Source: Clostridia bacterium
GTDB taxonomy: Bacteria > Bacillota > Clostridia > UMGS1883
Reading direction: 5' to 3'
NCBI GenBank assembly: GCA_045544395.1
Contig: JAZPYX010000064.1
Coordinates: 39,411-103,410 of the forward strand
Length of the DNA stretch: 64,000 nt
The translations under genes and the position numbers were made by a program. Each line of letters begins with the position of its first letter. Position 1 is the stretch's first letter. The notes beneath the pieces were generated by a model that worked only from the letters and a program-made list of their open reading frames with translations, was not told the DNA's origin and made no database searches. Positions 16,271-29,117 of the stretch are shown piece after piece.

Positions 16271-17416
16271 TCATCTGGCTGAAGTCCATTTTGTTCCATC
16301 AGAAAACTCAACAAAAGCAACCTTCAGATTCTTTATTGAATGAGAATCTTCTCTGACAAGTTCCCATCCAACTCTCTTTTTCTGATAAGGAGCCATCTCA
16401 AGATTTTTAACTTCGTAAGGTTCTGTGCAAACCTCTATAACATTGCCTTCTTCATCACAAACATCAAATTTAAGTCCGAATTTCTGTATTCTGTTGTTGC
16501 TTACATTTCGGTATTCAAATACAACGCGTCTCTTACCGTCTTTTGTATCAAACCAATAATTAATAAATCCAAGCGGAGAACCTGCAGCTTCTCTCCATGT
16601 ATCAACAATGTTTGAACGCAGATATCTGAGCATCGGTACATAGTCTGATTCTGCATTACCGAGTTTTTCGAGAGCCACGTCTACAGCACCGAACGCTGCT
16701 TCGTATTTTTTATCTTCAAGAAGCTTAACTGCACCTAAAGCACTTTTTCCGTCACCAAATGCTGCATAAGCATATACGGCTTCATCAAAAGCAGGATACC
16801 AATCTTCCGCTTTTGCAGCTTCTACATCCGCAGGAGAAATTTTCTTTTGTTCACCGGTATGTGAGTATACGGTTATGTAATTAGCTTCAGGTTTTGTTTT
16901 CGACCATCCTTCACTTTCATACTTTGCAACTTCGCTTAAAAGAACTGCTTTTTCATTACCGCTTGCATCATACATAATCACAGTTTCAGCGTTTGCACCT
17001 TCAAACTTAATCCAACCTAGTGTCTTATAAGCCTCAAGGTCGGCTACAGGCACATTCACAACTGTACCGTCTTTATACTGCACATTAACAGTTGTTTCAA
17101 CAGGCTGTGTAATTACAGGTTCTTTATTTTTTTCCTGCTCTTTTTTCAAATCATCTTCCAGATACCAGCCCACTGCCTGATATGCTTCCACCCTATCAGC
17201 AGGAACTACAAGGTCTCTTCCATCAAGAGCATACATAGTAACAGGTTTTTCTAAAAACCATCCCATACCATCAGCAATATACAGCTCAACCTCTTCACTT
17301 TCAACCTCAATCGTTCTTCCGTCAAGAGCGTAAAGTTCAGTTGTTTCGGCAAAGGCGGAAGTAGCCATCATAAGAGAAGCCGAAACACAAATCAACGATT
17401 TAAAACATTTTTTCAT
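16271..17416 (-). CDS. Secreted protein with five tandem ~27-aa Y-x-x-DG...V...Y...GW repeats, uncharacterised
   Basis: It has the signal peptide MKKCFKSLICVSASLMMATSAFA. The five repeats are listed in findings. The ~170-aa C-terminal domain is unrecognised. The start could instead be the GTG at 17425. Confidence 0.6.
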   Translation of the reverse strand: MKKCFKSLICVSASLMMATSAFAETTELYALDGRTIEVESEEVELYIADGMGWFLEKPVTMYALDGRDLVVPADRVEAYQAVGWYLEDDLKKEQEKNKEPVITQPVETTVNVQYKDGTVVNVPVADLEAYKTLGWIKFEGANAETVIMYDASGNEKAVLLSEVAKYESEGWSKTKPEANYITVYSHTGEQKKISPADVEAAKAEDWYPAFDEAVYAYAAFGDGKSALGAVKLLEDKKYEAAFGAVDVALEKLGNAESDYVPMLRYLRSNIVDTWREAAGSPLGFINYWFDTKDGKRRVVFEYRNVSNNRIQKFGLKFDVCDEEGNVIEVCTEPYEVKNLEMAPYQKKRVGWELVREDSHSIKNLKVAFVEFSDGTKWTSAR

Positions 17417-17460
17417 ATCTTTCACATTTCCTTTCGTCAGTATTTTACTTTTCTAAGATG

Positions 17461-17558: not shown

Positions 17559-17587
17559 TTGACATTATACAACATTTGAAGTATAAT
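17559..17587 (+). promoter_or_regulatory. Consensus sigma-A promoter for the rhaB-to-SPFH operon
   Basis: TTGACA (17559..17564), a 17-nt spacer, then TATAAT (17582..17587). Confidence 0.6.
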
Positions 17588-17636
17588 TGGTTATAATAAT
17601 TACAATGATAAAATTGTATAAAAAGGAGTGTTTTTA

Positions 17637-18956
17637 ATGTCATATCTTGCAATTGATATTGGTGCTTCAAGCGGCCGACATATGCTTGGAAAAAAAGTTA
17701 ACGGAAAAATAGAATTAACAGAGGTTTATCGTTTTAAAAACGGTCCCAAAATGAAAAACGGTCATTATTGCTGGGATCATGAGCAACTTTTTTCTGACAT
17801 TATTGCCGGCATGAAAAAATGCAGCGAAATGGGTGAAATCCCCGAAAGTGTTGCTATTGACTGTTTCGGCGTCGATTTTGCTCTGCTTGACGAAAACGAT
17901 AATCTTATCGGAGACACGGTTTCTTACCGCGACGAAAGAACAACCGCATCGCGTCAGGAAGTTTTTAAAATCATAAGTGAGGAAGATTTGTTTGAACGTA
18001 CGGGTGTGGCTTCTCAGCCCTTTAACACTATTTATCAGCTCTACGCTGTAAAAATGGAATCTCCCGATGATCTTAAGAAAGCAAAAACTTGTCTTCTTCT
18101 TCCCGAATACTTCAACTTCCTTCTCTCCGGCGTAAAGATGAATGAATTTACAATCGGTTCCACAACACAGCTTCTCAACGCAAAAACAAAAGAATATGAC
18201 AAGGAGCTTCTCGAAATGCTCGGAATTCCTTCGGATATTTTCGGAAAGCTTCATATGCCTTCAACAGTTGTCGGTGAGCTTCTTCCTGAAATCCAGGAAA
18301 AAGTAGGCTATAACTGTAAGGTTGTTCTTGCTGCAGGTCACGATACAGCATCTGCTGTTATGACAGTTCCGAATGAAGATGATGCAATATACATCAGCAG
18401 TGGTACATGGTCACTTATGGGTGTGCTTCTTGAAAATGCAATATGTACAGACCGTGCAAGAGAGGCCGGTCTTACAAACGAAGGAGCGTTCGACGGAAAA
18501 GTGCGTTTTCTTAAAAATATTACCGGTTTCTGGGTTGTTAATCAGCTTCGTGAACAAATCCCGATCCATGAAAGTTTCGGTGAAATGTGTGTAATGGCAG
18601 AAAACACTTCTTACACTACTCCCGTAGATATAAACAGCGACCTGCTCTTTGCTCCTAAAAACATGCAGGAAGCAGTTCTTTTACAGCTTGAAAGACAAGG
18701 TGCTCCCAAACCCAAAAACGTTGCTGAACTCCTTGCTTCTGTATACCACGGTATGGCGAACGGCTATAAGCAGGCAGTGCTTGAACTTGAAGAACTTACG
18801 CAAAGAACTTATAACACAATTTACATTATCGGTGGAGGTAGTCTTAATACACTTGTAAACAGACTTACTGAAGAATACACAGGCAAAAAAGTTGTTGCAT
18901 GGGAAGTTGAAGCTACTGCAATAGGAAATATTATGGCACAGGAATCTGCTAAATAA
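17637..18956 (+). CDS. rhaB: Rhamnulokinase-like FGGY carbohydrate kinase
   Basis: The segments ..AIDIGASSGRHM.., ..IDCFGVDFALLD.., ..SSGTWSLMG.. and ..TNEGAFDGKVRFLKNITGFW.. match the RhaB pattern. The ATG at 17637 follows an AAGGAG RBS. Confidence 0.7.
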   Translation: MSYLAIDIGASSGRHMLGKKVNGKIELTEVYRFKNGPKMKNGHYCWDHEQLFSDIIAGMKKCSEMGEIPESVAIDCFGVDFALLDENDNLIGDTVSYRDERTTASRQEVFKIISEEDLFERTGVASQPFNTIYQLYAVKMESPDDLKKAKTCLLLPEYFNFLLSGVKMNEFTIGSTTQLLNAKTKEYDKELLEMLGIPSDIFGKLHMPSTVVGELLPEIQEKVGYNCKVVLAAGHDTASAVMTVPNEDDAIYISSGTWSLMGVLLENAICTDRAREAGLTNEGAFDGKVRFLKNITGFWVVNQLREQIPIHESFGEMCVMAENTSYTTPVDINSDLLFAPKNMQEAVLLQLERQGAPKPKNVAELLASVYHGMANGYKQAVLELEELTQRTYNTIYIIGGGSLNTLVNRLTEEYTGKKVVAWEVEATAIGNIMAQESAK

Positions 18957-18982: not shown

Positions 18983-21691
18983 ATGGATTTCAAAAATATA
19001 AAAAACAAATATAAACCGCAGCCTCTTTGGTTGTGGAATTCAAAACTTAATATTGACGCCACCGTAAACAGTGTAAAAAATATGCTCGACAGTTCTTTGG
19101 GCGGATTTATAATAAGTCCACATTGCGGGCTCAACAGCACATATTTGTCAGACGAATGGCTGCGTAATGTATCTGCTGCACTTAACTGTGCAGCAGATAC
19201 TTGTGTGCAGTGGTGGTTTTGTAACGAAACATCCGGATATTCCGGAAGCTCCTGTGCTGATGTTTCTTCTATGGGGCTTGAATACCATCAGAAGTTTTTA
19301 CGTTATGAATCAGGGGAAAAAACCAATGAGCGTACCATTATTTTTCACCTCGGCTACCACTTTTTTTATGATGAAAATCCCGTATGCATTGACCCCTTTA
19401 ATGACAATGCTTCACAAATTTATCTAAACGAATCATTTTCTCCGTATGTTGGCGAAAACGGGAATATCTGCGGTTTTGTTTTTGATGTTTCTCCGTTTTT
19501 TACTGAAAATATTCCATGGAGTTTTTCGTTTCCTGAAAAATACAAAAATGAGTATGGCGAGGAATTGCTTGACGTACTTATTGAACTTTTTAAGCCAGTA
19601 GGAACATATACTGATACAAGATTCAAATTCTGGACACTTATATTCAAGCTTCTGTGTAATAATTTTCTTTTACCGATATATAACTGGTGTACGGAAAATG
19701 GTTTGAAATTATCTGTCAAGGTTCCGGAAAATAATTTATACGACCCTATATGCAAGGCCGCATTTATGAAAATATGCAGCTACGCACATATCCCCTGTTT
19801 TGAGGTTTCATCATTAAAAAACATATCCCCCGTTAAGGCTCTTTTGGCGTCATCTCTTTCCCATCAGATGGGAAAAGAACAAACGTGTGCAATGCTCTAT
19901 TCCTCATGCGGTCACAGCCGCAGTTTTGATGAATTAAAGCATATGGCACAGGCCAACATCGTCAGAGGGATAGATAAAATTGTTCCTTGTTCTGTAGCTA
20001 ATTCTCTTGACGGATTCAGGAAGTATACCGTATCAACGCCTATGACTTTCCAGAAATACCGTAACGTGGAAAATAGTATTTTTAACAGTGTAATTGGTCG
20101 CACATGCAATATTCTTGGAGAAGGCAAGGTACGTTTTGATACACTCCTTATCCACAACCTCGCTTCTTCTCTCAGCACTTTTGAGGCAGACGATAAAAAT
20201 TATACAGATGAAAACCTTATTAAATTAGAAAAAGCTATTGACATTCTTGAAAAGAAACATATTCCATTCCATCTTGGAGACGAAATGATTTTAAGGGATT
20301 TCGCACGTGTAGAAGGAAACTCTATAATTATAGGTCAGCAAAAATATCAAACTATCGTTTTGACGGAAACCCCCGTCCTGCTTGAAAGTACAACTGCTCT
20401 TCTTGCAGAATTCGAGAGAAGTGGCGGATTTATTGTTATGGCCAAGTCTTTGAAAAACAATCCTATCTGCGATAATGAAAATCTTCTTTATACAAAAAGG
20501 CAATATTCAGGCTTTAACATACATTATTTTGTGAATAATTCAGAAGAATCTTTCACAGCTGCAATTACATCTGGAAGCAAGCTTATAGACGCTTCTACCG
20601 GGGAGATTCTTCCGTTTTTCGGAATATATAAATTCAGCCCTTACGAATCAATTCTTGTTCTTGACGACGGAACGGCTCAACCTCAAAGGCCGTACCTCAA
20701 GCCATTAAAATCACTTGATATTTCCGGTACATGGCAAGTTGATAGTTATACACCGAACTACTTTCTCATTGACAAATGTAATCTTTATATTAATGGCGAA
20801 CTGCAATATGAAAATATGTCCGCACAGAATACTACAGACGTTATTTCAGTACTTTCGGAGCCATCTGAAATCGAATGTGTTTATAAGTTTGATGTATTAT
20901 CTGAAATTTCTGAACTGTATCTTTCATATGAAAACTATGATACCTTCACACTCAAGTTGAATGGTACTGTAATAAAAAATGAAATTATTAAGCAAACAGA
21001 TTCAGATTTGTTTGCTAAAATCAATATATCAGAATACATTATTAAAGGAACCAATATCCTTTCGCTATCGGCAAAGCATTCTCTTAACAATAAATTTAGA
21101 GCACTCTATGAAAAGGCATCCCTTTACAATTCAGAGCTGAACAGAATTACTTACCCAAAAGAATTTCCGCCTTTATATCTTTCAGGAAACTTTTCCGTTA
21201 TATGTGACGGCACGTTCAGAAAACTGGACAAAAAGGCATGCCGCTATTTAGGCGGTTTCAAGCTGGATAAAACAGTCATCGAAAGCTCTGTTTCAAATTT
21301 AGAAAAAAACGGTTTTCCTTTTTTTGCAGGTCAGATAACACTGAAAAAGACGTTTAACCTTTCTGATACGTCTTACTGTATAAAACTTATGCCAAAAGGA
21401 ATACGAAGTATATCTGTGTATGTAAACGGAAAACCTGTCGATACCATGCTGTACAGTCCTTTTGAATGTGACATATCTAATCATCTTGTTAAAGGTGATA
21501 ACATCATACAGCTTACACTTACTACCAATTTGCGTAATTTATTCGGGCCACACCATCTTCCTTTAGGTGAGCTTTATGAAGTTAGTACAAAAGATTATTA
21601 CGGTGCCCCCTGTATATGGAACGGATATAAAAATTCCCCCTGGGAAGAAAATTATTGTTTTATTGAATTTGGCATTGATTCTGCGGAGTAA
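18983..21691 (+). CDS. Large glycoside-hydrolase-like protein (GH106-like family)
   Basis: 902 aa. The N-terminus ..YKPQPLWLWNSKLNID..LGGFIISPHCGL.. matches the P-x-P-(F/L)-W-x-W-N start of a widespread family of putative rhamnosidase-type hydrolases. The specific activity cannot be verified here. Confidence 0.45.
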   Translation: MDFKNIKNKYKPQPLWLWNSKLNIDATVNSVKNMLDSSLGGFIISPHCGLNSTYLSDEWLRNVSAALNCAADTCVQWWFCNETSGYSGSSCADVSSMGLEYHQKFLRYESGEKTNERTIIFHLGYHFFYDENPVCIDPFNDNASQIYLNESFSPYVGENGNICGFVFDVSPFFTENIPWSFSFPEKYKNEYGEELLDVLIELFKPVGTYTDTRFKFWTLIFKLLCNNFLLPIYNWCTENGLKLSVKVPENNLYDPICKAAFMKICSYAHIPCFEVSSLKNISPVKALLASSLSHQMGKEQTCAMLYSSCGHSRSFDELKHMAQANIVRGIDKIVPCSVANSLDGFRKYTVSTPMTFQKYRNVENSIFNSVIGRTCNILGEGKVRFDTLLIHNLASSLSTFEADDKNYTDENLIKLEKAIDILEKKHIPFHLGDEMILRDFARVEGNSIIIGQQKYQTIVLTETPVLLESTTALLAEFERSGGFIVMAKSLKNNPICDNENLLYTKRQYSGFNIHYFVNNSEESFTAAITSGSKLIDASTGEILPFFGIYKFSPYESILVLDDGTAQPQRPYLKPLKSLDISGTWQVDSYTPNYFLIDKCNLYINGELQYENMSAQNTTDVISVLSEPSEIECVYKFDVLSEISELYLSYENYDTFTLKLNGTVIKNEIIKQTDSDLFAKINISEYIIKGTNILSLSAKHSLNNKFRALYEKASLYNSELNRITYPKEFPPLYLSGNFSVICDGTFRKLDKKACRYLGGFKLDKTVIESSVSNLEKNGFPFFAGQITLKKTFNLSDTSYCIKLMPKGIRSISVYVNGKPVDTMLYSPFECDISNHLVKGDNIIQLTLTTNLRNLFGPHHLPLGELYEVSTKDYYGAPCIWNGYKNSPWEENYCFIEFGIDSAE

Positions 21692-21693
21692 AT

Positions 21694-22869
21694 ATGTATA
21701 CACTTATAGAAATATTTGATTCTAAACAATATGAAAATGTGATAACGCCCTCTACTTTAGATGATATAAGCAAAGTAGTCTATGTAGGAACAAAAAATAT
21801 TATGACATCGCGCAAAAAACAGGCAATCACAGATTTTTTCAAGCGACGCAATATTTCTTTCAAGGTTGAATTTTTCACAATTGAAAGAGATGACTCCGTA
21901 AAAGCGGAAGAAGTCATAGAGTATATATTAAGCCATAATTGCAACTGTATTTTCGATGCAACAGGCGGTGAGGATGTTATCCTTACTATCGTCGGTGCCT
22001 GCGCACAAGCACACTCCGTTCCCATCGTACGGACGAATCCTGTCGACGGAAAAGTCGCACTAATCCGCGGAGAAGTAAATAATCTTAAATACAATAAGGC
22101 TTCACTCACCTTAGATGACATCATATGCTTACAGGGTGGAAATATAATTCATAGCACACAAATAAGCACCCTCTCCATAGAGGAATGTGCCGATATAAAA
22201 AAACTTTTTAAAGTTAACGCCTATGATTGCGAGGCATATAGCTTATTTATCAATTTCATATCAGAATATATGTCTGATGATTTAACCGAAATTGTTATTC
22301 CCTATGAAAAATTTCACTCCTTATCCGTTTACCGCTATAAAAAAGCAAAAAAGATTTTGGATATGCTTTTATCAAACTCTCTCATAAGGAAGTTTAACCC
22401 TCAAAAACAATACTACTCTTTTAAAATAAAGAATAAGCTCATTGCACTATGCCTCAAAAAGTCAGGAAATATTCTTGAGTATTATACAGCAATGGCAGTG
22501 ATGCATTCTCGTAATTTATTTAAAGAAATACGACTTGGTACTACCATAGAATGGAACAGTTCTTCTAATTCTTTTGACACACAAAACGAAATAGATGTTA
22601 TGACTGTATCAGATAATTTTCCCGTTTTTATCTCGTGCAAAAACGGAAGTATTAAAAAAGATGCACTTTATGAGCTTGATGCTGTATCAAGAGCTCTTGG
22701 CGGTGCGTATACAAAAAAAGTACTTGTTTGCACATACATATCTGAAAACGCATCCTCACGAGAGCACTTTATAAAGCGTGCGAAGGATATGAATATACAA
22801 ATCATTTACGACGTTCACAAAATGACCTACGAACAATTTCTCAATTATCTAAAAATTTCAGTGTATTGA
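21694..22869 (+). CDS. CARF domain + PD-(D/E)xK nuclease-fold protein (Card1/Can2-like, DUF1887-type)
   Basis: 391 aa. The N-terminal half has a CARF-like pattern (..KVVYVGTKNIM.., ..IFDATGGEDVILTIVG..). The C-terminal half has ..GNILEYY.., ..NEIDVM.., ..VFISCKNG.. and ..LYELDAVSRALGGAYTKKVLV... It starts 2 nt after the preceding stop codon. Confidence 0.6.
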   Translation: MYTLIEIFDSKQYENVITPSTLDDISKVVYVGTKNIMTSRKKQAITDFFKRRNISFKVEFFTIERDDSVKAEEVIEYILSHNCNCIFDATGGEDVILTIVGACAQAHSVPIVRTNPVDGKVALIRGEVNNLKYNKASLTLDDIICLQGGNIIHSTQISTLSIEECADIKKLFKVNAYDCEAYSLFINFISEYMSDDLTEIVIPYEKFHSLSVYRYKKAKKILDMLLSNSLIRKFNPQKQYYSFKIKNKLIALCLKKSGNILEYYTAMAVMHSRNLFKEIRLGTTIEWNSSSNSFDTQNEIDVMTVSDNFPVFISCKNGSIKKDALYELDAVSRALGGAYTKKVLVCTYISENASSREHFIKRAKDMNIQIIYDVHKMTYEQFLNYLKISVY

Positions 22870-22882
22870 AAGGAAAATATAT

Positions 22883-24571
22883 ATGAAAAGATTACTTTGT
22901 ATATTACTTTTGTTTTTACTTTGTTTTTGCATATCAACCTACTCTTATGCGGCTGAATTGTTAAGCAGAAATGAAGTATCATCCGAAAATCTTACTCCAC
23001 CCATATGGATGCAGGCAGATATTCTTATTGACAATGAGAATATTCCTGTTGCGACAAGCAGCATCATGCTTAGCAAGCAAGAAATGGGGTTTTCAACACC
23101 ATATGGAAATGCACAGAAATTTACTAATCTCGTGGACGGATACAGTATCGTAATTCCATCTGATATGAATGTTGATATGTCTCTTTCAGACGTATGTGCA
23201 ACTTTCAGCAATCAGACAAGGACGCTAAGAGTTTTCAAAGAAACATTTATTACTGCATCCGACAGGCTTTCTTATCTTACTTATTCAAATCTTTTCATCG
23301 AGAATACAACAGAACATACCAAAGAAGTTGATACTTCGTTTAATCTTGACGGAGTCGATTACCATATACTTCAGTGGTCAAGACGCGCATTAAAAAATGT
23401 AGCTAACGATAAAAATTTCTACGCCTGTATAGACGTATGTATAGGGGCCAGAGTTTATACATTTTTCTTTACATCCAGTACCCCGTTTGCTTCACAGGAC
23501 GATTATATGAATATTGTAAAATCACTGGTTACATCTGACCCGGTAGTTCCAAAAGAAAACGCCTATAATCATGGCTATAAAATGAGTGATTTATCACACC
23601 TGAACCCTACTACCAAGGCAACGTATGACAAATTATTTTCAGAGTCTTCCGAATTCAAAATGGGTATTTTTTCTCCGGAAGTATACGGTGGTTACAACAA
23701 AATGTACAATATAGAAAATTATATTGGATATGACTTTTGTACATTTTTGCAATATACAGAGTGTACGGACAGTTACGGTATGTCAAACAATGAATATCAG
23801 GCTAAAGTTTCAAACTATATAAATAATATCCAGTTAGACTTTGAATTTGCAAGGAACAAAAACAAACACATAGAACTGACACTTCAGCCCCCGCTGAATC
23901 GTGCTACCGGTGCCAATATGGTGTATGAAATACTAGACGGTAATTACGACTATTTTATTTCACAGTATATTACGCTTATACAAAAAAATGCCGATGTTAC
24001 AGTTCTTTTCAGACCTTTTAATGAAATGAACGGTGACTGGTGCTCTTACAGTGCTTACCATACATCGAGAGATCCGCAGATTTATATTGAGCTCTACAAA
24101 TACCTTTATAAGAAGTTTGAAAAAGCCGGTTGTAAAAATGTGATATGGGTATGGAATCCTAACGAAAAAAGTTATCCTGATTTTAAATGGAATAATGAAG
24201 CACTTTATTATCCCGGAGATGAATATGTTGATGTTTACGGTATAACAGGTTACAATAACGGAACATATTACAAGGGAGAAACCTGGCGCTCTTTTGATGA
24301 AATTTATGAGCCAATTTATAAAAGAGCACTAAAAATCAATGAAAAGCCAATAATGATTACAGAATTTTCGTGTTCTGCAATCGGTGGGGATAAAATAGCA
24401 TGGATAGAAGATATGTTTAACGCTCTTCCCAAGTATGATAAAATCAAGCTTGCTATATGGTGGCATCACGCTGACTATGACGGAGAAAAGCTTTCTCGTC
24501 CTTATTTCATAGACACCCCTGAAGGAACGCTTGATGTATTCAAAAAATACTTAGGGAAAGGAGGAATTTAA
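22883..24571 (+). CDS. GH26-like glycoside hydrolase with an unknown ~250-aa N-terminal domain
   Basis: It has a signal/anchor sequence MKRLLCILLLFLLCF... The GH26-type blocks are VLFRPFNEMNGDW, VIWVWNPNE, YYPGDEYVDVYGITGYN and IMITEFS. Confidence 0.7.
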   Translation: MKRLLCILLLFLLCFCISTYSYAAELLSRNEVSSENLTPPIWMQADILIDNENIPVATSSIMLSKQEMGFSTPYGNAQKFTNLVDGYSIVIPSDMNVDMSLSDVCATFSNQTRTLRVFKETFITASDRLSYLTYSNLFIENTTEHTKEVDTSFNLDGVDYHILQWSRRALKNVANDKNFYACIDVCIGARVYTFFFTSSTPFASQDDYMNIVKSLVTSDPVVPKENAYNHGYKMSDLSHLNPTTKATYDKLFSESSEFKMGIFSPEVYGGYNKMYNIENYIGYDFCTFLQYTECTDSYGMSNNEYQAKVSNYINNIQLDFEFARNKNKHIELTLQPPLNRATGANMVYEILDGNYDYFISQYITLIQKNADVTVLFRPFNEMNGDWCSYSAYHTSRDPQIYIELYKYLYKKFEKAGCKNVIWVWNPNEKSYPDFKWNNEALYYPGDEYVDVYGITGYNNGTYYKGETWRSFDEIYEPIYKRALKINEKPIMITEFSCSAIGGDKIAWIEDMFNALPKYDKIKLAIWWHHADYDGEKLSRPYFIDTPEGTLDVFKKYLGKGGI

Positions 24572-25003
24572 TTGAGTATACTATGGACATTAGCTATCGT
24601 TGTTTTCTTAATTTTTGAAGCATCCACATTTCAGTTTGTCTGTATATGGTTTGCAGGCGGAGCACTTGGTGCTTTAATTTGTTCCTTGTTTAATCTTAAC
24701 ATCTGGATTCAGCTTTCCGTATTTTTTGCTATCACTATCATACTCCTTCTGTGCACAAAAAAAGTAGTTCGTAAGTTAAAAGAAGGTTCAGGCGAAAAAA
24801 CAAATGCCGAGGCTTTGATTGGTCAGGCAGCAATTATAACTCAATCTATTTCAGACAACAACTCTTCCGGAGAAGCAAAAATCCAGGGACAGATGTGGAG
24901 TGCAAGAAGTCTTGACGGAAATGATATTCCTGAAGGAAGCATTGTCACGGTAGAAAAAATCAGTGGAGTTAAATTAATTGTAAAAAATAAAGAGGAGGAC
25001 TAA
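24572..25003 (+). CDS. NfeD family membrane protein
   Basis: The TTG start is 6 nt after AAAGGAGGA. It has three TM helices and then an OB-fold tail ..GEAKIQGQMWSARS..GSIVTVEKISGVKLIV... Confidence 0.8.
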   Translation: MSILWTLAIVVFLIFEASTFQFVCIWFAGGALGALICSLFNLNIWIQLSVFFAITIILLLCTKKVVRKLKEGSGEKTNAEALIGQAAIITQSISDNNSSGEAKIQGQMWSARSLDGNDIPEGSIVTVEKISGVKLIVKNKEED

Positions 25004-25005
25004 AG

Positions 25006-25887
25006 ATGGGCATTATTTTTGTATTATTTCTCATAGCAATCATAGTTGCGATTGCTAACATCAAAATCGTTCCGCAGGCATACGCATACGTTATTGAAAG
25101 ACTTGGTGCGTATCAGGCAACATGGTCAGTGGGTCTTCACATCAAGGTTCCTTTTATTGACCGCATAACAAAAAAGGTTAACCTTAAAGAACAGGTTGTG
25201 GACTTTCCTCCCCAGCCGGTTATTACTAAAGATAACGTATCTATGCAAATTGATACTGTAATTTATTTTCAGATTACGGACCCAAAGCTTTATACCTATG
25301 GTGTTGAGCGTCCCATGATGGCTATTGAAAACCTTACGGCTACAACTCTTCGAAATATTATCGGTGACCTTGACCTTGACGGAACACTTACTTCAAGAGA
25401 TACTGTAAACACAAAGATGCGTGCTATTCTTGATGAAGCAACAGATCCTTGGGGAATAAAAATCAACCGTGTTGAGCTTAAAAATATTATCCCACCTAAG
25501 GAAATTCAGAATGCTATGGAAAAGCAGATGAAAGCTGAGCGTGAACGCCGTGAAGCAATCCTTCGTGCAGAGGGTGAAAAGAAGTCAGCAATTCTTCTTG
25601 CAGAAGGTGAAAAGGAATCTGCAATTCTTCGTGCGGAAGCTAAGAAGCAAGCTGCCATTAAAGAAGCAGAAGGTGAAGCTGATGCTATTATCGCAGTGCA
25701 GACTGCTATTGCAGAAGGTATCCGCAAAATTAACGAGGCAAATCCTTCAAAAGAATATGTTGCAATAAAGTCACTTGAAAGCATGGAAAAAGTTGCAAAC
25801 GGTCAGGCTACAAAGATTATTATTCCATCAGAAATGCAGTCACTGGCAGGACTTGCAGCATCTTGCAAAGAATTATTTAAAGACTGA
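25006..25887 (+). CDS. SPFH/band 7 (stomatin-like) protein
   Basis: It has an N-terminal anchor, an SPFH core (..VIERLGAY.., ..TKDNV.., ..YFQI.DP..) and an Ala/Glu-rich coiled-coil tail. It forms the classical pair with the preceding NfeD gene. Confidence 0.9.
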   Translation: MGIIFVLFLIAIIVAIANIKIVPQAYAYVIERLGAYQATWSVGLHIKVPFIDRITKKVNLKEQVVDFPPQPVITKDNVSMQIDTVIYFQITDPKLYTYGVERPMMAIENLTATTLRNIIGDLDLDGTLTSRDTVNTKMRAILDEATDPWGIKINRVELKNIIPPKEIQNAMEKQMKAERERREAILRAEGEKKSAILLAEGEKESAILRAEAKKQAAIKEAEGEADAIIAVQTAIAEGIRKINEANPSKEYVAIKSLESMEKVANGQATKIIIPSEMQSLAGLAASCKELFKD

Positions 25888-25921
25888 TAATATAGAAAGC
25901 GAATATAAAACAACTTTCTGC

Positions 25922-25963
25922 ATAATAAAACAAAGACCTCTAATGAGGTCTTTGTTTTATTAT
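25922..25963. terminator. Bidirectional terminator (19-bp stem)
   Basis: ATAATAAAACAAAGACCTC-TAAT-GAGGTCTTTGTTTTATTAT lies between the convergent SPFH and MFS genes. Confidence 0.8.
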
Positions 25964-27249
25964 GCATATTCTTTTTTCTTAAGTGCATTAACAACAAATA
26001 TATGAAACAGAGCTATCGTTAAAATTCTTACCAGTACTGCTATTACCGCAAGCACCTGTTGCCCGTAGATGTGTATTCCGAAAACCATATTGCCGCCGGC
26101 TTGTATACTACTTAATATGAAGCCACCAATCAGTGCACCCAAAAAAGAAAAACCACCCGAAAACACACTTTTGATTGCCATTGCCTGAGTTATGTAATTA
26201 TTCGGAAGCATCTGATAAGATATATTGAAGCCATTCTGATACGAGCCTGCATTTGATGCTACAAGAAGCATTGTATATACAGTTACCAGATACCATGTTT
26301 TAGGAGTAGTAAATATAATTGAAGTAAACGCAAGTATACTAAGCATACTTGCAAGCTCTATTCCCTTTGCAAATCCGTATTTGTCGGAAAATTTACCAAA
26401 AGGCTTGGAAACTATCAGTCTGAGAAAATCTGCAAGAATATTAATAAGCTGAATTGTAAAAATCGGCATAAGCAAATCGTTTATTTTATACACACCGATA
26501 AATCCGTTCAGAAGTCCGTTTGCAAAATTCGATCCACTGCTTATAGCCACATAAGCTATAAAAGTGCTGTTCGTTTTTATGTAGCCGAGCACTTCCCCAA
26601 ACGACATACGCATTGCTTCCTGCTCTTTTTTATCCTCTTCCCGTATCATTTTAAGGCAAATATAATTAATCAGGTTAATCACAAGCATTGTAATAGCAAT
26701 TACTAAAAATCCGCCTTCAAGATTTTTCTGTTTGTCAAATGCATCTATTACGTACCCCATAACCGTTGCAAATACTATCCCGCAAATCAGCGATATGCAT
26801 TCTTTATTTGCTGAAAAAACACCGCGTTTTTCAGGATGGACATATTCATTTGCCCATTTAAAATACAATGTAATTACCAGATATTTGCCACCATAGGCTA
26901 AGACAATGGAAAGAATTGCAAGAATCCTTTTTGCAATATCCGGAATTGGCAAAAACGGAATAAAATACAAAAGCATAAAACAGAACTGACTTAAACAATC
27001 CGAAATCATTACACTTTTTTTAGTTGAGAGTTTTGATTTCACTAAGAATACAGACAGTATCTGAAAAACAAATGCAATCGAAACAAAGGACGCTATAACA
27101 CCTATCGCTGCATCACTTAGTCCAATATATGTTAGAAGCTTTGCAAGGTATGCATCTACTACAAAAAGTCCGAGAAGATGCTCTATCGTGCACTGCGTAA
27201 CATAAGCTTTTCTGCTGCGTTTATAATCCGGTGATTCAAATTCATTCAT
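25960..27249 (-). CDS. MFS transporter
   Basis: 429 aa with ~12 hydrophobic segments. A GGGGGT RBS precedes it. It lies 5 nt downstream of the 620-aa gene. Confidence 0.7.
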   Translation of the reverse strand: MNEFESPDYKRSRKAYVTQCTIEHLLGLFVVDAYLAKLLTYIGLSDAAIGVIASFVSIAFVFQILSVFLVKSKLSTKKSVMISDCLSQFCFMLLYFIPFLPIPDIAKRILAILSIVLAYGGKYLVITLYFKWANEYVHPEKRGVFSANKECISLICGIVFATVMGYVIDAFDKQKNLEGGFLVIAITMLVINLINYICLKMIREEDKKEQEAMRMSFGEVLGYIKTNSTFIAYVAISSGSNFANGLLNGFIGVYKINDLLMPIFTIQLINILADFLRLIVSKPFGKFSDKYGFAKGIELASMLSILAFTSIIFTTPKTWYLVTVYTMLLVASNAGSYQNGFNISYQMLPNNYITQAMAIKSVFSGGFSFLGALIGGFILSSIQAGGNMVFGIHIYGQQVLAVIAVLVRILTIALFHIFVVNALKKKEYA

Positions 27250-27254
27250 TTAAA

Positions 27255-29117
27255 TTACCCCCAATTACTTGTAATAAGCACATAGTCCCATCTTTCAATG
27301 TTATTGATTTTTACAAAAGTTCTGCCGTTTTCGTGACGCTGCGGCATAAGTGTAAGACTTCCATCCTTATTTATAATGCAGAAATCTTTATCACTGATAA
27401 TCTCAACCTCAAATTCTTCCGTGGGATCAAAATGCGCATTACAAAGCATAACTGTCTGCACTTCCCCGTTTTTGCCCTTTGCGTATGGAACAACCTTGAT
27501 TGATTTTTCAATCACCACGGGAAGTGTATTGCCCGAAAGCCAGCTGAAAATATTCATCATCTGTGTACGCTTTGACGCGGTCTGTGCCTGACCCGGCATC
27601 ATATAGCCATCAGCAATAAACTTTCTGCCGTCAGGGAATTCCTTTTTAATCATTGCTGCGCCGTGAACGGTCTGACCGGTTTTAAGGCTTGTCACAACCT
27701 CTGCCCCGTCGTCAGGTTTAAGAAGATATGCATCACCTTCATAATAAATATCCATTGAGGCATATCTTGTTTTTCCGCAAAATTCACCGTTAAGAGGATT
27801 GTCGTGGAAATATTCAATAACACCATTGGGGAATGCTTTTTCAACTTCACCGCAGGTTTTATCCCTGAAACCTCTTTCATTAAGAACGTCAAGTCCTTTA
27901 CCGTCTGTAATTACATTCTTTGCAAGTATTTTTAAGACCATGTCATCAGTGTACTGATTCCACTCTTCACCAAGCACGATTGCACTTGTTGCCGCATCAA
28001 GATTTGCAGTAACAGGGATGCTGATTTCACTCATATATCTTGCTGTAACAGCATCTGCACAGAATACACCCATATTTACGCAATCTTTGTTTACATCGGC
28101 AAGGACATCCCACTTATCCTTTGATTTACGAAGCATTTCAAAAAACTTCGGTTCATTAATCATTGTGGATCGATTATAAAGGACACCGTTACAGCCTACC
28201 ATTATTGCGATAGAGGTTTCCATTTCCGAAGTGTGGAAGGATTTTTCAAGAGTTCTTCCATTATAGGATTCGTATTCATACTGAACGTCTGTAACTCTGT
28301 CTGGATATTCTGCAAGTTCTTTCTGAATCCAGAAGCTTTTTTCAAAAAGTTCAAGGGTAAATCTGTCGTTAAAGTAACCGCCACCGGGTCTTCCCTTTGT
28401 GGCTTTACTTGCATCAATCCACTCATACACGTAATTGCATCCGCCCGACATATAGCCGATTTCAATTTTCGGGTCAATTGCCTTGATTGCATCGTGAATT
28501 TCATTAACCATATTACAAAGGGAGTCATAAGCACTTTCTTTCCATGTATCACGAAGTTCCTTGTCAGAATCCCACTTTGCCTGAATATCTGAAAGAGTAT
28601 AGTTTTTACTGTATGTTTTGTTATACTTTTTAACACATACAGGACAATAGCAGAACCCCTGGACAATTCCGTGATTTCCTACACGGACATCATCGTCAAG
28701 CCATATATAATCTGTACCTGTTTTCGCATACAATGTATATTTATCCTTTATATATTCAATGAATCTTTCATCAGCAGGGCAAAGACAGCTTCCTGACTCT
28801 ACGCCATCAAAGTTCACCATATACTGCATCTGTGCCTTTTCATGAAGTCCGCCACCGTCTTCTGTATGACCAAGTGTTGCAAGTACGTTTACACCAACCT
28901 TTTTAGCACCTAATTCCTTATATTTTTTTATTGCGGGGACAAGTAATTCTGCCTCTTTAATCGTATCCTCACGAGGGGTGTATCCGTGATGTGAACCACC
29001 TGCAAAAAGCGTTACTTCATCAACAACGTCAAGGTTTTTCTTAACCATATCAAGATACTTGTTAAGTGTTTCTTCACTTGTATAACTGTTTCTTCCTATT
29101 CTGAGTGCTATAAGCAT
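27255..29117 (-). CDS. Uncharacterised 620-aa cytoplasmic protein, probable carbohydrate-active enzyme
   Basis: A clean ORF with a GGAGAG RBS, co-oriented with the MFS gene and divergent from an AraC gene. It has a Cys cluster ..GFCYCPVCVKKY... I recognise no family. Confidence 0.5.
   Translation of the reverse strand: MLIALRIGRNSYTSEETLNKYLDMVKKNLDVVDEVTLFAGGSHHGYTPREDTIKEAELLVPAIKKYKELGAKKVGVNVLATLGHTEDGGGLHEKAQMQYMVNFDGVESGSCLCPADERFIEYIKDKYTLYAKTGTDYIWLDDDVRVGNHGIVQGFCYCPVCVKKYNKTYSKNYTLSDIQAKWDSDKELRDTWKESAYDSLCNMVNEIHDAIKAIDPKIEIGYMSGGCNYVYEWIDASKATKGRPGGGYFNDRFTLELFEKSFWIQKELAEYPDRVTDVQYEYESYNGRTLEKSFHTSEMETSIAIMVGCNGVLYNRSTMINEPKFFEMLRKSKDKWDVLADVNKDCVNMGVFCADAVTARYMSEISIPVTANLDAATSAIVLGEEWNQYTDDMVLKILAKNVITDGKGLDVLNERGFRDKTCGEVEKAFPNGVIEYFHDNPLNGEFCGKTRYASMDIYYEGDAYLLKPDDGAEVVTSLKTGQTVHGAAMIKKEFPDGRKFIADGYMMPGQAQTASKRTQMMNIFSWLSGNTLPVVIEKSIKVVPYAKGKNGEVQTVMLCNAHFDPTEEFEVEIISDKDFCIINKDGSLTLMPQRHENGRTFVKINNIERWDYVLITSNWG

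Follow-up and report, generated by a model that had tools for sequence, protein, structure and literature searches.

A stand-alone Can2/Card1/VC1899-like protein of a Clostridia bacterium belongs to a subfamily with S-C-K in place of the E-x-K motif

A stretch of 64,000 nucleotides from a Clostridia bacterium (contig JAZPYX010000064.1, positions 39,411 to 103,410), hereafter called the window, contains a complete open reading frame (ORF) for a protein of 391 aa with a CARF domain and a PD-(D/E)xK nuclease core. It is the third gene of a predicted six-gene unit, preceded by genes for a rhamnulokinase-like kinase and a 902-aa protein and followed by genes for a GH26-family protein, an NfeD-family protein and an SPFH protein (Table 1). 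The encoded protein belongs, as a genuine and selectively maintained member, to a distinct S-x-K subfamily of Can2/Card1/VC1899-like proteins.

Fold, active site and sensor pocket

An earlier note on this DNA, made from the letters alone, had proposed a Card1/Can2-like CARF and PD-(D/E)xK protein. The ORF and all of the peptides quoted there are present (KVVYVGTKNIM, IFDATGGEDVILTIVG, GNILEYY, NEIDVM with D301, VFISCKNG and LYELDAVSRALGGAYTKKVLV), the Ser314 codon TCG lies at 22633..22635 as given, and the identification agrees with Pfam, PADLOC, a family profile, and AlphaFold2 (AF2) and Foldseek. The Pfam model PF09002 (Card1_endonuc) matched the protein with E 1.1e-8 and 35.2 bits, the cut-off being 26.4, and the PADLOC CARF4--CARF_PDDEXK profiles covered its full length (E 3.9e-32). 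Membership of the DUF1887/CARF4 (Crf4) family therefore extends over both the CARF and nuclease domains. With the family profile, the best match was VC1899 (E 2.9e-12), and Can2 was matched with E 2.8e-9, both over the full length. No NCBIfam model matched the protein, and no helix-turn-helix (HTH) family was detected in it by Pfam.

The AF2 model, built from an alignment of 54 sequences, reached a predicted local distance difference test score (pLDDT) of 92.8 and a predicted template modelling score (pTM) of 0.89. Its top Foldseek match in the PDB was VC1899 (1XMX, E 1.5e-24, template modelling (TM) score 0.75-0.77), followed by Cdn1, Can2 from three organisms, Card1, Can1 and then isolated CARF domains. 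The leading entries (1xmx, 9u49, 7bdv, 8bao and 6xl1) gave E values of 1e-24 to 1e-17 and TM scores of 0.64-0.77. The model and its matches have the same order of parts, namely a CARF domain, a helical insert and a PD-(D/E)xK core. In the AF2 secondary structure, the N-terminal domain alternates between beta and alpha elements from E2-7 to E121-125, and the CARF domains of Csa3, Crn1/Sso2081 and Cam1 are among its domain-level Foldseek matches. The middle region is the counterpart of the extra helical/beta motif known in Can2 and VC1899 (PMC7969007).

Table 1. Features of the predicted transcription unit and of the ORF protein (positions in the window)
Feature	Positions	Strand	Basis
Sigma-70 consensus, 12/12 match, upstream of the rhamnulokinase gene; likely unit start	17559..17587	+	pattern match alone
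Rhamnulokinase-like FGGY kinase, first gene of the predicted six-gene unit	17628..18956	+	TIGR02627 E 2.4e-132, below equivalog cut-off
902-aa protein, weak alpha-L-rhamnosidase/GH2 (GH2_N) jelly-roll similarity	18983..21691	+	Pfam, NCBIfam, below cut-offs
Complete ORF, 391 aa	21694..22869	+	Can2/Card1/VC1899-like (DUF1887, CARF4), S-C-K subfamily
N-terminal CARF (Rossmann-like) domain, ~aa 1-130	21694..22083	+	AF2 secondary structure, PADLOC, Foldseek
Pocket motif 1, E6-x-x-D9...N15 (LIEIFDSKQYEN)	21709..21738	+	alignment; D9 = Can2 Ser19, VC1899 Asp9
Pocket motif 2, D88-A-T-G91-G92-E93-D94...G101	21955..21996	+	alignment; D94 = Can2 Lys99
Middle region between CARF domain and core, mostly helical, ~aa 131-250	22084..22443	+	AF2 secondary structure
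PD-(D/E)xK nuclease core, aa 257-373	22462..22812	+	Pfam Card1_endonuc
E262, acidic residue of the first core helix	22477..22479	+	invariant in alignment
N298-E299-I-D301, core strand 2	22585..22596	+	= Can2 E276/D278 pair; N298, E299 and D301 each invariant
S314-C315-K316 (TCG TGC AAA), core strand 3, replacing E-C-K	22633..22641	+	invariant in 269 sequences
GH26-family protein, hydrophobic N-terminus, 13 nt 3' of the ORF	22883..24571	+	Pfam E 5.7e-17
NfeD-family membrane protein	24572..25003	+	PF01957 E 4.4e-16
SPFH/Band-7 protein, usual NfeD partner	25006..25887	+	PF01145 E 2.1e-42
Strong intrinsic-terminator-like hairpin, 20 pairs then T run; likely unit end	25919..25966	+	pattern

In both phmmer and profile alignments, Ser314 was placed under the Glu of IECK (VC1899, Can2), VECK (8BAO) and MECK (Cdn1), and the NEIDV segment under NELDV/NEIDV of the known relatives. 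Because of these two alignments, the description of a Can2/Card1-like protein with S-C-K instead of E-x-K is correct. What did not stand is the view that the motif is peculiar to this one gene, since it is the defining signature of a large family. Of the catalytic D...E-x-K triad, D301 and K316 are there, and the Glu is Ser314 here and in 269/269 relatives. E262, N298, E299, D301, S314, C315, K316, G318, G91 and G92 are each 100% conserved among the 269 aligned sequences. F[IV]SCK, NE[IV]D, the Glu of the first core helix and the GG pocket motif were found in 120/120 listed homologues (100% down to 25% identity), and [FYL][IVL]SCK in 145/146 further representatives of 50%-identity clusters. 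The protein is thus a member of DUF1887/CARF4 by fold and family profile but is not a Can2/Card1 protein in the narrow sense, for which the ExK Glu and the cA4 (cyclic tetra-adenylate) contacts would be required.

At the nucleotide level, the Ser314 codon is TCN at 86/86 loci, and all four synonymous forms are in use. A serine encoded by TCN only, with synonymous variation, points to purifying selection on the residue itself, and a one-off mutation or a pseudogene was rejected on the same grounds together with the invariance of S-C-K. A decayed nuclease is also unlikely because the other catalytic residues stay invariant across such divergence. The suggestion of a nuclease-attenuated sensor, made in the earlier note, is accordingly disfavoured by the invariance of E262, N298, E299, D301 and K316, together with Ser314, in the 269 sequences.

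Active PD-(D/E)xK enzymes without a third-strand Glu are known, such as Cfr10I (PD-xxK-E) and EcoO109I (EPD-xxK), in which the carboxylate comes from elsewhere (PMC3424549). Compensation of the Cfr10I type, by a Glu of the following helix (E327), was rejected because a Glu occupies this position in just 49% of the family, the others having Lys. E299, two residues before D301, would probably supply the carboxylate missing at position 314, as in the E-P-D...x-x-K variants. It is worth noting that the equivalents of E299 and D301 are the residues replaced in the nuclease-dead E276A/D278A double mutant of SthCan2 (PMC7969007). We infer that the ORF protein has a variant metal site and most likely works as a phosphodiesterase or nuclease that is active and ligand-gated.

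The best-conserved segments of the N-terminal domain are the two loops of the CARF pocket, E6-x-x-D9...N15 and D88-x-T-G-G-E/D-D/E...G101. In the 269 sequences, E6 is kept in 98%, D9 in 90% and N15 in 98%, and an acidic residue occupies position 93 in 86% and position 94 in 95%. The conserved cA4 contacts of Can1/Can2 are S19, T42, K99 and Y118 (PMC7969007). By profile alignment, those of SthCan2 map to D9, T33, D94 and R113 of the ORF protein, in which the S19 and K99 positions are therefore acidic and the conserved set of contacts is broken. The equivalents in VC1899 are D9, D34, R96 and V115; its pocket was judged unfit for the anionic cA4, and its RNase activity is weak and cA4-independent (PMC7969007). 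A ligand is likely because the pocket is conserved, but its chemistry differs from that of a cA4 pocket. To judge from these residues, cA4 is probably not the ligand; SAM-AMP (S-adenosylmethionine-AMP) or another less anionic adenylate, or an unknown small molecule, would be more likely.

Transcription unit, family and genomic neighbourhoods

The stop codon of the upstream gene and the ATG of the ORF are 2 nt apart, a GGAG sequence lies inside the end of the upstream gene, and the next start follows after 13 nt. Translational coupling, as proposed previously, is plausible from the 2-nt gap and the position of GGAG. The ORF had also been placed between two glycosidase-like genes; this is right for the downstream GH26 gene, whereas the similarity of the upstream 902-aa protein is weak and below the cut-offs. 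The ORF appears to share a transcript with genes for sugar utilisation, GH26 and NfeD/SPFH, and the reasons for this look lineage-specific. A 33-bp tandem repeat of 2.5 copies (25553-25634) inside the SPFH gene encodes an AILRAEGEKxS repeat of the coiled-coil tail. The unit is flanked by genes for a 620-aa protein (27255-29117, minus strand) and a 384-aa protein (16271-17425, minus strand), neither of which reaches the threshold of any Pfam or NCBIfam family; the latter has a signal-peptide-like N-terminus and internal repeats.

No CRISPR arrays were found in the window by TRF and a k-mer spacing scan, and it has no Rfam matches and no tRNA genes that we could find. Cas, CD-NTase and ring-nuclease families were absent from the PADLOC matches (E<=1e-8) of its 52 ORFs of at least 150 aa; ORFs of less than 150 aa, possibly including small ring nucleases, were left out. 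Within these limits, the statement of the earlier note that no CRISPR-Cas or cyclase lies nearby holds for the window. The PADLOC matches obtained were to generic ATPase-type families, PDC candidate families and one Fic-type family. The latter is a match of one of the 52 ORFs to the SoFic (Fic-domain) model with E 8.9e-42, while several ABC-type ATPases matched the mad3, mad8 and AriA models, probably through generic ATPase similarity. The G+C content is 34-41% throughout, with no compositional island. A phage or mobile origin was rejected, given that no relatives were found in IMG/VR, no tRNA gene in the window and no compositional island.

The order ORF-GH26-NfeD-SPFH is kept in 13 near-clade loci (43-55% identity), including L014, in which the contig ends before NfeD and SPFH, and the upstream genes differ between them. 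In none of the other ~70 family loci does a GH26, NfeD or SPFH gene adjoin the homologue. An adjacent NfeD and Band_7 pair is present in the window, and its linkage to the ORF is confined to the near clade. The GH26-like family is broader (1334 matches) and stands alone among envelope-related genes in three distant genomes; for this reason, the apparent module is lineage-specific operon packing at best. Of the suggestion that the ORF forms an undescribed module with GH26 and NfeD/SPFH, the lineage-specific operon of 13 loci therefore remains, and a functional module is unsupported outside them. The position of the ORF in the rhaB/902-aa/ORF/GH26/NfeD/SPFH unit would reflect such packing and not a functional module.

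To assess the size of the family, an exhaustive profile search was conducted against 1.84 billion cluster representatives. It returned 879 clusters at 50% identity at E<=1e-30, a number that rose to 3295 when the threshold was E<=1e-3, and a motif scan of one genome per species was positive for 259 species. The labels of 80/80 loci listed are from Clostridia (Oscillospiraceae, Acutalibacteraceae, Lachnospiraceae, Ruminococcus, Congzhengia and others), and the branching of the protein tree agrees with the taxon labels. A search of IMG/VR viral contigs gave no relatives. Based on these sequence data, the S-C-K branch is a large, previously uncharacterised and Clostridia-restricted subfamily of Can2/Card1/VC1899 proteins; we found no description of an S-x-K subfamily in the literature searched. 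PF09002 misses a sizeable share of the family (for example, L097:2543-3946 has no Pfam match at E<=0.01, and many of the homologues listed are without one), and domain-based surveys therefore undercount the S-C-K branch of Can2-like genes. One member, P0295 (833 aa), carries ~400 aa of TPR/Sel1-like repeats fused C-terminally.

CRISPR-Cas genes lie within 10 kb at 2/83 distinct genome loci, and 81/83 loci are without them. The neighbours of the relatives are mixed housekeeping genes (smc, secA, rplA, trmD, fba, pfl, clp/ftsH, ABC exporters and a DeoD-type phosphorylase). Neither all-against-all neighbour clustering nor Pfam scans of the genes directly up- and downstream gave a family-wide partner gene, and the only recurrent neighbours seen were lineage-specific: ABC exporters, smc, PNP_UDP_1 and YbjN-like genes. 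In one subclade (L043, L056, L061, L076), smc directly precedes the S-C-K gene with gaps of -40 to +13 nt, which suggests co-transcription with a chromosome-maintenance gene. A DeoD-type PNP_UDP_1 gene lies immediately upstream in at least five Ruminococcus-clade loci (region L035-L038, L046, L054, L077, L081, L082; e.g. L077:6955-7671), and the co-occurrence of DUF1887 with PNP_UDP_1 was already seen in a 2012 survey (PMC3424549). YbjN-like proteins of ~160 aa, one or two in tandem, are encoded near the S-C-K gene in six of the loci examined (L039:2482-3453, L071, L079, L049, L072 and L058:1108-1599) and also at the edges of two CRISPR-linked loci, including the ends of L112.

CRISPR-linked relatives and a possible link to SAM-AMP

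Four distinct members of the family are encoded in CRISPR loci, and the linked partner is always a CorA-bearing type III-B system (cmr1-6, cas10b and corA). L058 and L024, in each of which the type III-B locus is complete, are the linked members among the 83 loci, while L097 and L112 (L113 is the same locus) were found by searching from the CorA/Cas10b side. L058:1830-13080 is organised as cas6b-cmr1-cas10b-cmr3-4-5-6-corA followed by the S-C-K gene, then a reverse-strand cas6 and a 9-repeat array. In L024:1485-11202, the S-C-K gene precedes cmr1-cas10b-cmr3-4-5-6-corA-cas6b, with unrelated genes on both flanks. L097:2543-13557 starts with the S-C-K gene and runs from cmr1 to corA, followed by an array and cas6b. 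L112:6609-16593 consists of the S-C-K gene, cas6b, cmr1 through corA and a DEDD-like gene, and its Cas10 falls into a cluster of 2396 member sequences. The gene in the window has neither corA nor a CorA-type cas10b beside it, in contrast to these four loci.

The four linked proteins share 34-42% mutual identity. Those of L024, L058 and L112 are each nearer to orphans (45-56%) than to one another, and the L097 protein exceeds 34% identity with no other member. In pocket and active-site residues, all four agree with the protein encoded in the window.

An S-C-K gene is present in 4 of ~11 informative CorA loci; of the remaining ones, L105 has a DEDD-like gene and L109/L110 a phospholipase-C-like gene, and in the others nothing could be recognised. 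In L024, L058 and L097, it is the sole accessory gene besides corA, and no NrN, DEDD or SAM-AMP lyase gene could be recognised there. The DEDD-like genes of L112 (15994-16593) and L105 (13149-13703), located 3' of corA/cmr6, encode proteins of ~180 aa with FIDAETDG/HNALNDA-type motifs resembling DEDD exonucleases; this assignment is based on motifs seen by eye and on 49% mutual identity, with no Pfam or NCBIfam match. The small CorA-adjacent proteins of L093, L094 and L105 have no Pfam match. In a Ruminococcus type III-B locus, a gene for a PF00882 Zn-dependent phospholipase C lies directly 3' of corA (L109:16405-17121, also L110) and may be an accessory.

CorA-bearing type III-B systems signal by SAM-AMP and not by cyclic oligoadenylate (cOA), and they need a degrading enzyme, which is NrN, DEDD or a lyase (PMC10600005, PMC12255297). 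In their Cas10 proteins, conserved acidic residues occupy the two positions that are Asn and Arg in cOA synthases (PMC10600005, PMC12255297); this has been explained by the methionine moiety, which makes SAM-AMP locally cationic (PMC10600005). In the Cas10b proteins of the loci found here, two acidic positions are invariant (D79 and E146, numbered as in L058). The same charge argument would also fit the acidic substitutions in the S-C-K CARF pocket. A role of the S-C-K protein as the sole SAM-AMP degrader, replacing NrN, DEDD or lyase, is weakened by L112, and a second, signal-gated effector is likelier because this locus has both a DEDD-like and an S-C-K gene.

It is possible, though we consider it rather unlikely, that the S-C-K Can2-like (Crf4) proteins are the first CARF-type receptors of SAM-AMP and that their orphan copies are trans-acting effectors or sentinels. 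The acidic pocket would then bind the cationic SAM moiety, which would parallel the basic-to-acidic swap in the Cas10 proteins that make SAM-AMP, and the binding would switch on the variant E-x-D...S-x-K phosphodiesterase site or feed substrate to it. The hundreds of orphans of gut Clostridia, the ORF protein included, would answer SAM-AMP-like molecules that come from elsewhere in the cell or from invaders. In the literature searched, we found no CARF receptor for SAM-AMP reported, and the SAM-AMP pathway was called poorly characterised in the 2025 classification. The recurrent placement of S-C-K genes in CorA type III-B loci, together with the lack of such a report, makes them a concrete and testable candidate.

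Competing explanations and comparison with known systems

Based on the above results, we tentatively favour, at somewhat less than an even chance, a stand-alone member of the S-x-K subfamily that would be an active, ligand-gated phosphodiesterase or nuclease with a ligand other than cA4. The protein would act in trans on a signal made outside the window, or sense an endogenous or phage-derived ligand. This retains part of the displaced-effector reading of the earlier note, which gains support from the four relatives with the same motifs inside type III-B/CorA loci, but the cA4 logic assumed there is doubtful, with two of the four contacts acidic and the only CRISPR partners found being of the class reported to use SAM-AMP.

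Several points weigh against such an active enzyme with another ligand. Can2-type enzymes are normally inactivated when the ExK Glu is replaced, and its change to Ala is the standard dead mutant (PMC7969007; PDB entry titles), so that replacement of this Glu by Ser314 may leave low or altered activity. Compensation by E299 is something we infer, since Can2 relatives hold the Glu of E-x-D together with that of ExK. The mapping of pocket residues comes from profile alignments at 13-18% identity and not from a structural superposition. Position 113 remains basic (R/K in 82%) and T33 matches Can2 T42; because of these two residues, binding of cOA in another pose may hold. The correspondence of Cas10b D79/E146 to D70/E151 of B. 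fragilis is putative. Elsewhere, CorA with a CARF partner was taken as cOA-activated CorA, as in the Actinomyces loci with CorA and Csm6-2 (PMC11229360). Furthermore, CRISPR-linked members number just 4 against ~80 orphans.

This excess of orphans suits a vertically inherited housekeeping phosphodiesterase or nuclease, whose CARF pocket would bind an endogenous metabolite or an RNA end as in RtcR and whose CRISPR-linked copies would be secondary recruitments. In its favour are 81/83 loci away from CRISPR-Cas, housekeeping neighbours, stable positions within lineages (directly after smc in four loci and after PNP_UDP_1 in five), a tree that tracks taxonomy, no compositional island and no viral-contig relatives found, and the older survey had also linked DUF1887 with PNP_UDP_1. 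A precedent for recruitment exists in NrN and DEDD, the SAM-AMP degraders, which are homologues of housekeeping nanoRNases (PMC10600005). We nevertheless regard it as unlikely, for the distribution is patchy (the motif scan found 259 species), members from four separate branches lie inside the same kind of CRISPR locus, and the clades have no housekeeping partner or pathway in common. Another reading, that the gene encodes a conventional cA4- or cA6 (cyclic hexa-adenylate)-activated Can2/Card1 nuclease merely relocated away from a type III locus that lies elsewhere in this genome, can draw on the common fold and architecture, on T33 and the basic residue 113, which are compatible with part of the Can2 pocket, on the relatives in type III-B loci and on the proposal that CorA loci with CARF partners are cOA-driven (PMC11229360). 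However, the ExK Glu is replaced in every member, acidic residues stand at S19 and K99, and the closest structure, VC1899, neither binds nor responds to cA4 (PMC7969007). In addition, L112 has a DEDD-type enzyme, a class typical of SAM-AMP systems, and CRISPR linkage is ~2%, whereas Can2 is typically linked (PMC7969007). Relocation of an ordinary effector is for these reasons distinctly improbable.

We give little credence, too, to a catalytically dead CARF sensor, in which S314 would have abolished the nuclease and which would act by binding, for example in transcription regulation or as a sponge that takes up a nucleotide signal. This fold is classically inactivated through loss of the ExK Glu, one source names a homologue 'predicted transcriptional regulator', and VC1899 itself has just residual activity (PMC7969007); yet E262, N298, E299, D301, K316 and Ser314 are invariant in a family reaching 25% identity, and Pfam detects no HTH family. 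The least probable explanation is a four-gene module in which the CARF nuclease, a secreted GH26-like protein, NfeD and SPFH would couple a cytoplasmic sensor to envelope or membrane remodelling. The order of the genes is kept in the 13 near-clade loci despite differing upstream genes, the intergenic gaps are 0-13 nt, and single promoter-like and terminator-like sites bracket the unit. But the ~70 other family loci are without these adjoining genes, the GH26-like family is far broader and occurs alone, the NfeD-SPFH pair is a common stand-alone operon, and the GH26, NfeD and SPFH proteins have no PADLOC match.

Can2 and Card1 are the textbook cA4-activated D...ExK nucleases, and the S-C-K branch breaks both the ExK Glu and the cA4 contacts and usually lies outside CRISPR loci. 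If the orphans are housekeeping proteins, they would represent a second well-supported role of CARF outside CRISPR immunity, after RtcR. It should be noted that current pipelines would call the gene a 'CARF4 nuclease', which may mislead the annotation of defence systems in gut Clostridia.

Among the known systems, VC1899 of Vibrio cholerae (PDB 1XMX), the founding member of DUF1887, is the best structural and sequence-profile match to the ORF protein. It is likewise an orphan away from CRISPR-Cas, carries Asp where Can2 has Ser19, and its pocket was judged unfit for cA4; the ORF, a stand-alone gene whose product has a pocket without the cA4 contacts, is an orphan of this kind. VC1899 differs in that it keeps E-C-K, shares ~16% identity and is gammaproteobacterial, whereas the S-C-K family is confined to Clostridia. 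Can2/Card1 (SthCan2 7BDV, TresuCard1 6WXW/6XL1, Can2 8BAO/8Q3Y) and Cdn1 (9U49) have the same CARF domain, helical insert and PD-(D/E)xK core and share the N-E-x-D and x-C-K strands and the core-helix Glu. They are cA4- or cA6-activated nucleases of type III CRISPR systems, and some S-C-K members are also encoded in type III-B loci. In the S-C-K family, by contrast, the ExK Glu is Ser and the cA4 contacts S19/K99 are Asp or Glu; moreover, ~98% of its loci are CRISPR-unlinked, and the linked ones are CorA loci of the SAM-AMP class and not the usual cOA loci.

Cfr10I/NgoMIV (PD-xxK-E) and EcoO109I (E-P-D...x-x-K) resemble the S-C-K proteins in having a non-acidic third-strand position followed by x-K, with the compensating carboxylate elsewhere, but they are restriction enzymes without a CARF domain. 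NrN, DEDD and SAM-AMP lyase are comparable in another respect, as the S-C-K gene takes their usual slot in L024, L058 and L097 and also encodes a phosphodiesterase-fold protein. The fold is unrelated to theirs, however, L112 has both kinds of gene, and the gene in the window stands without corA nearby.

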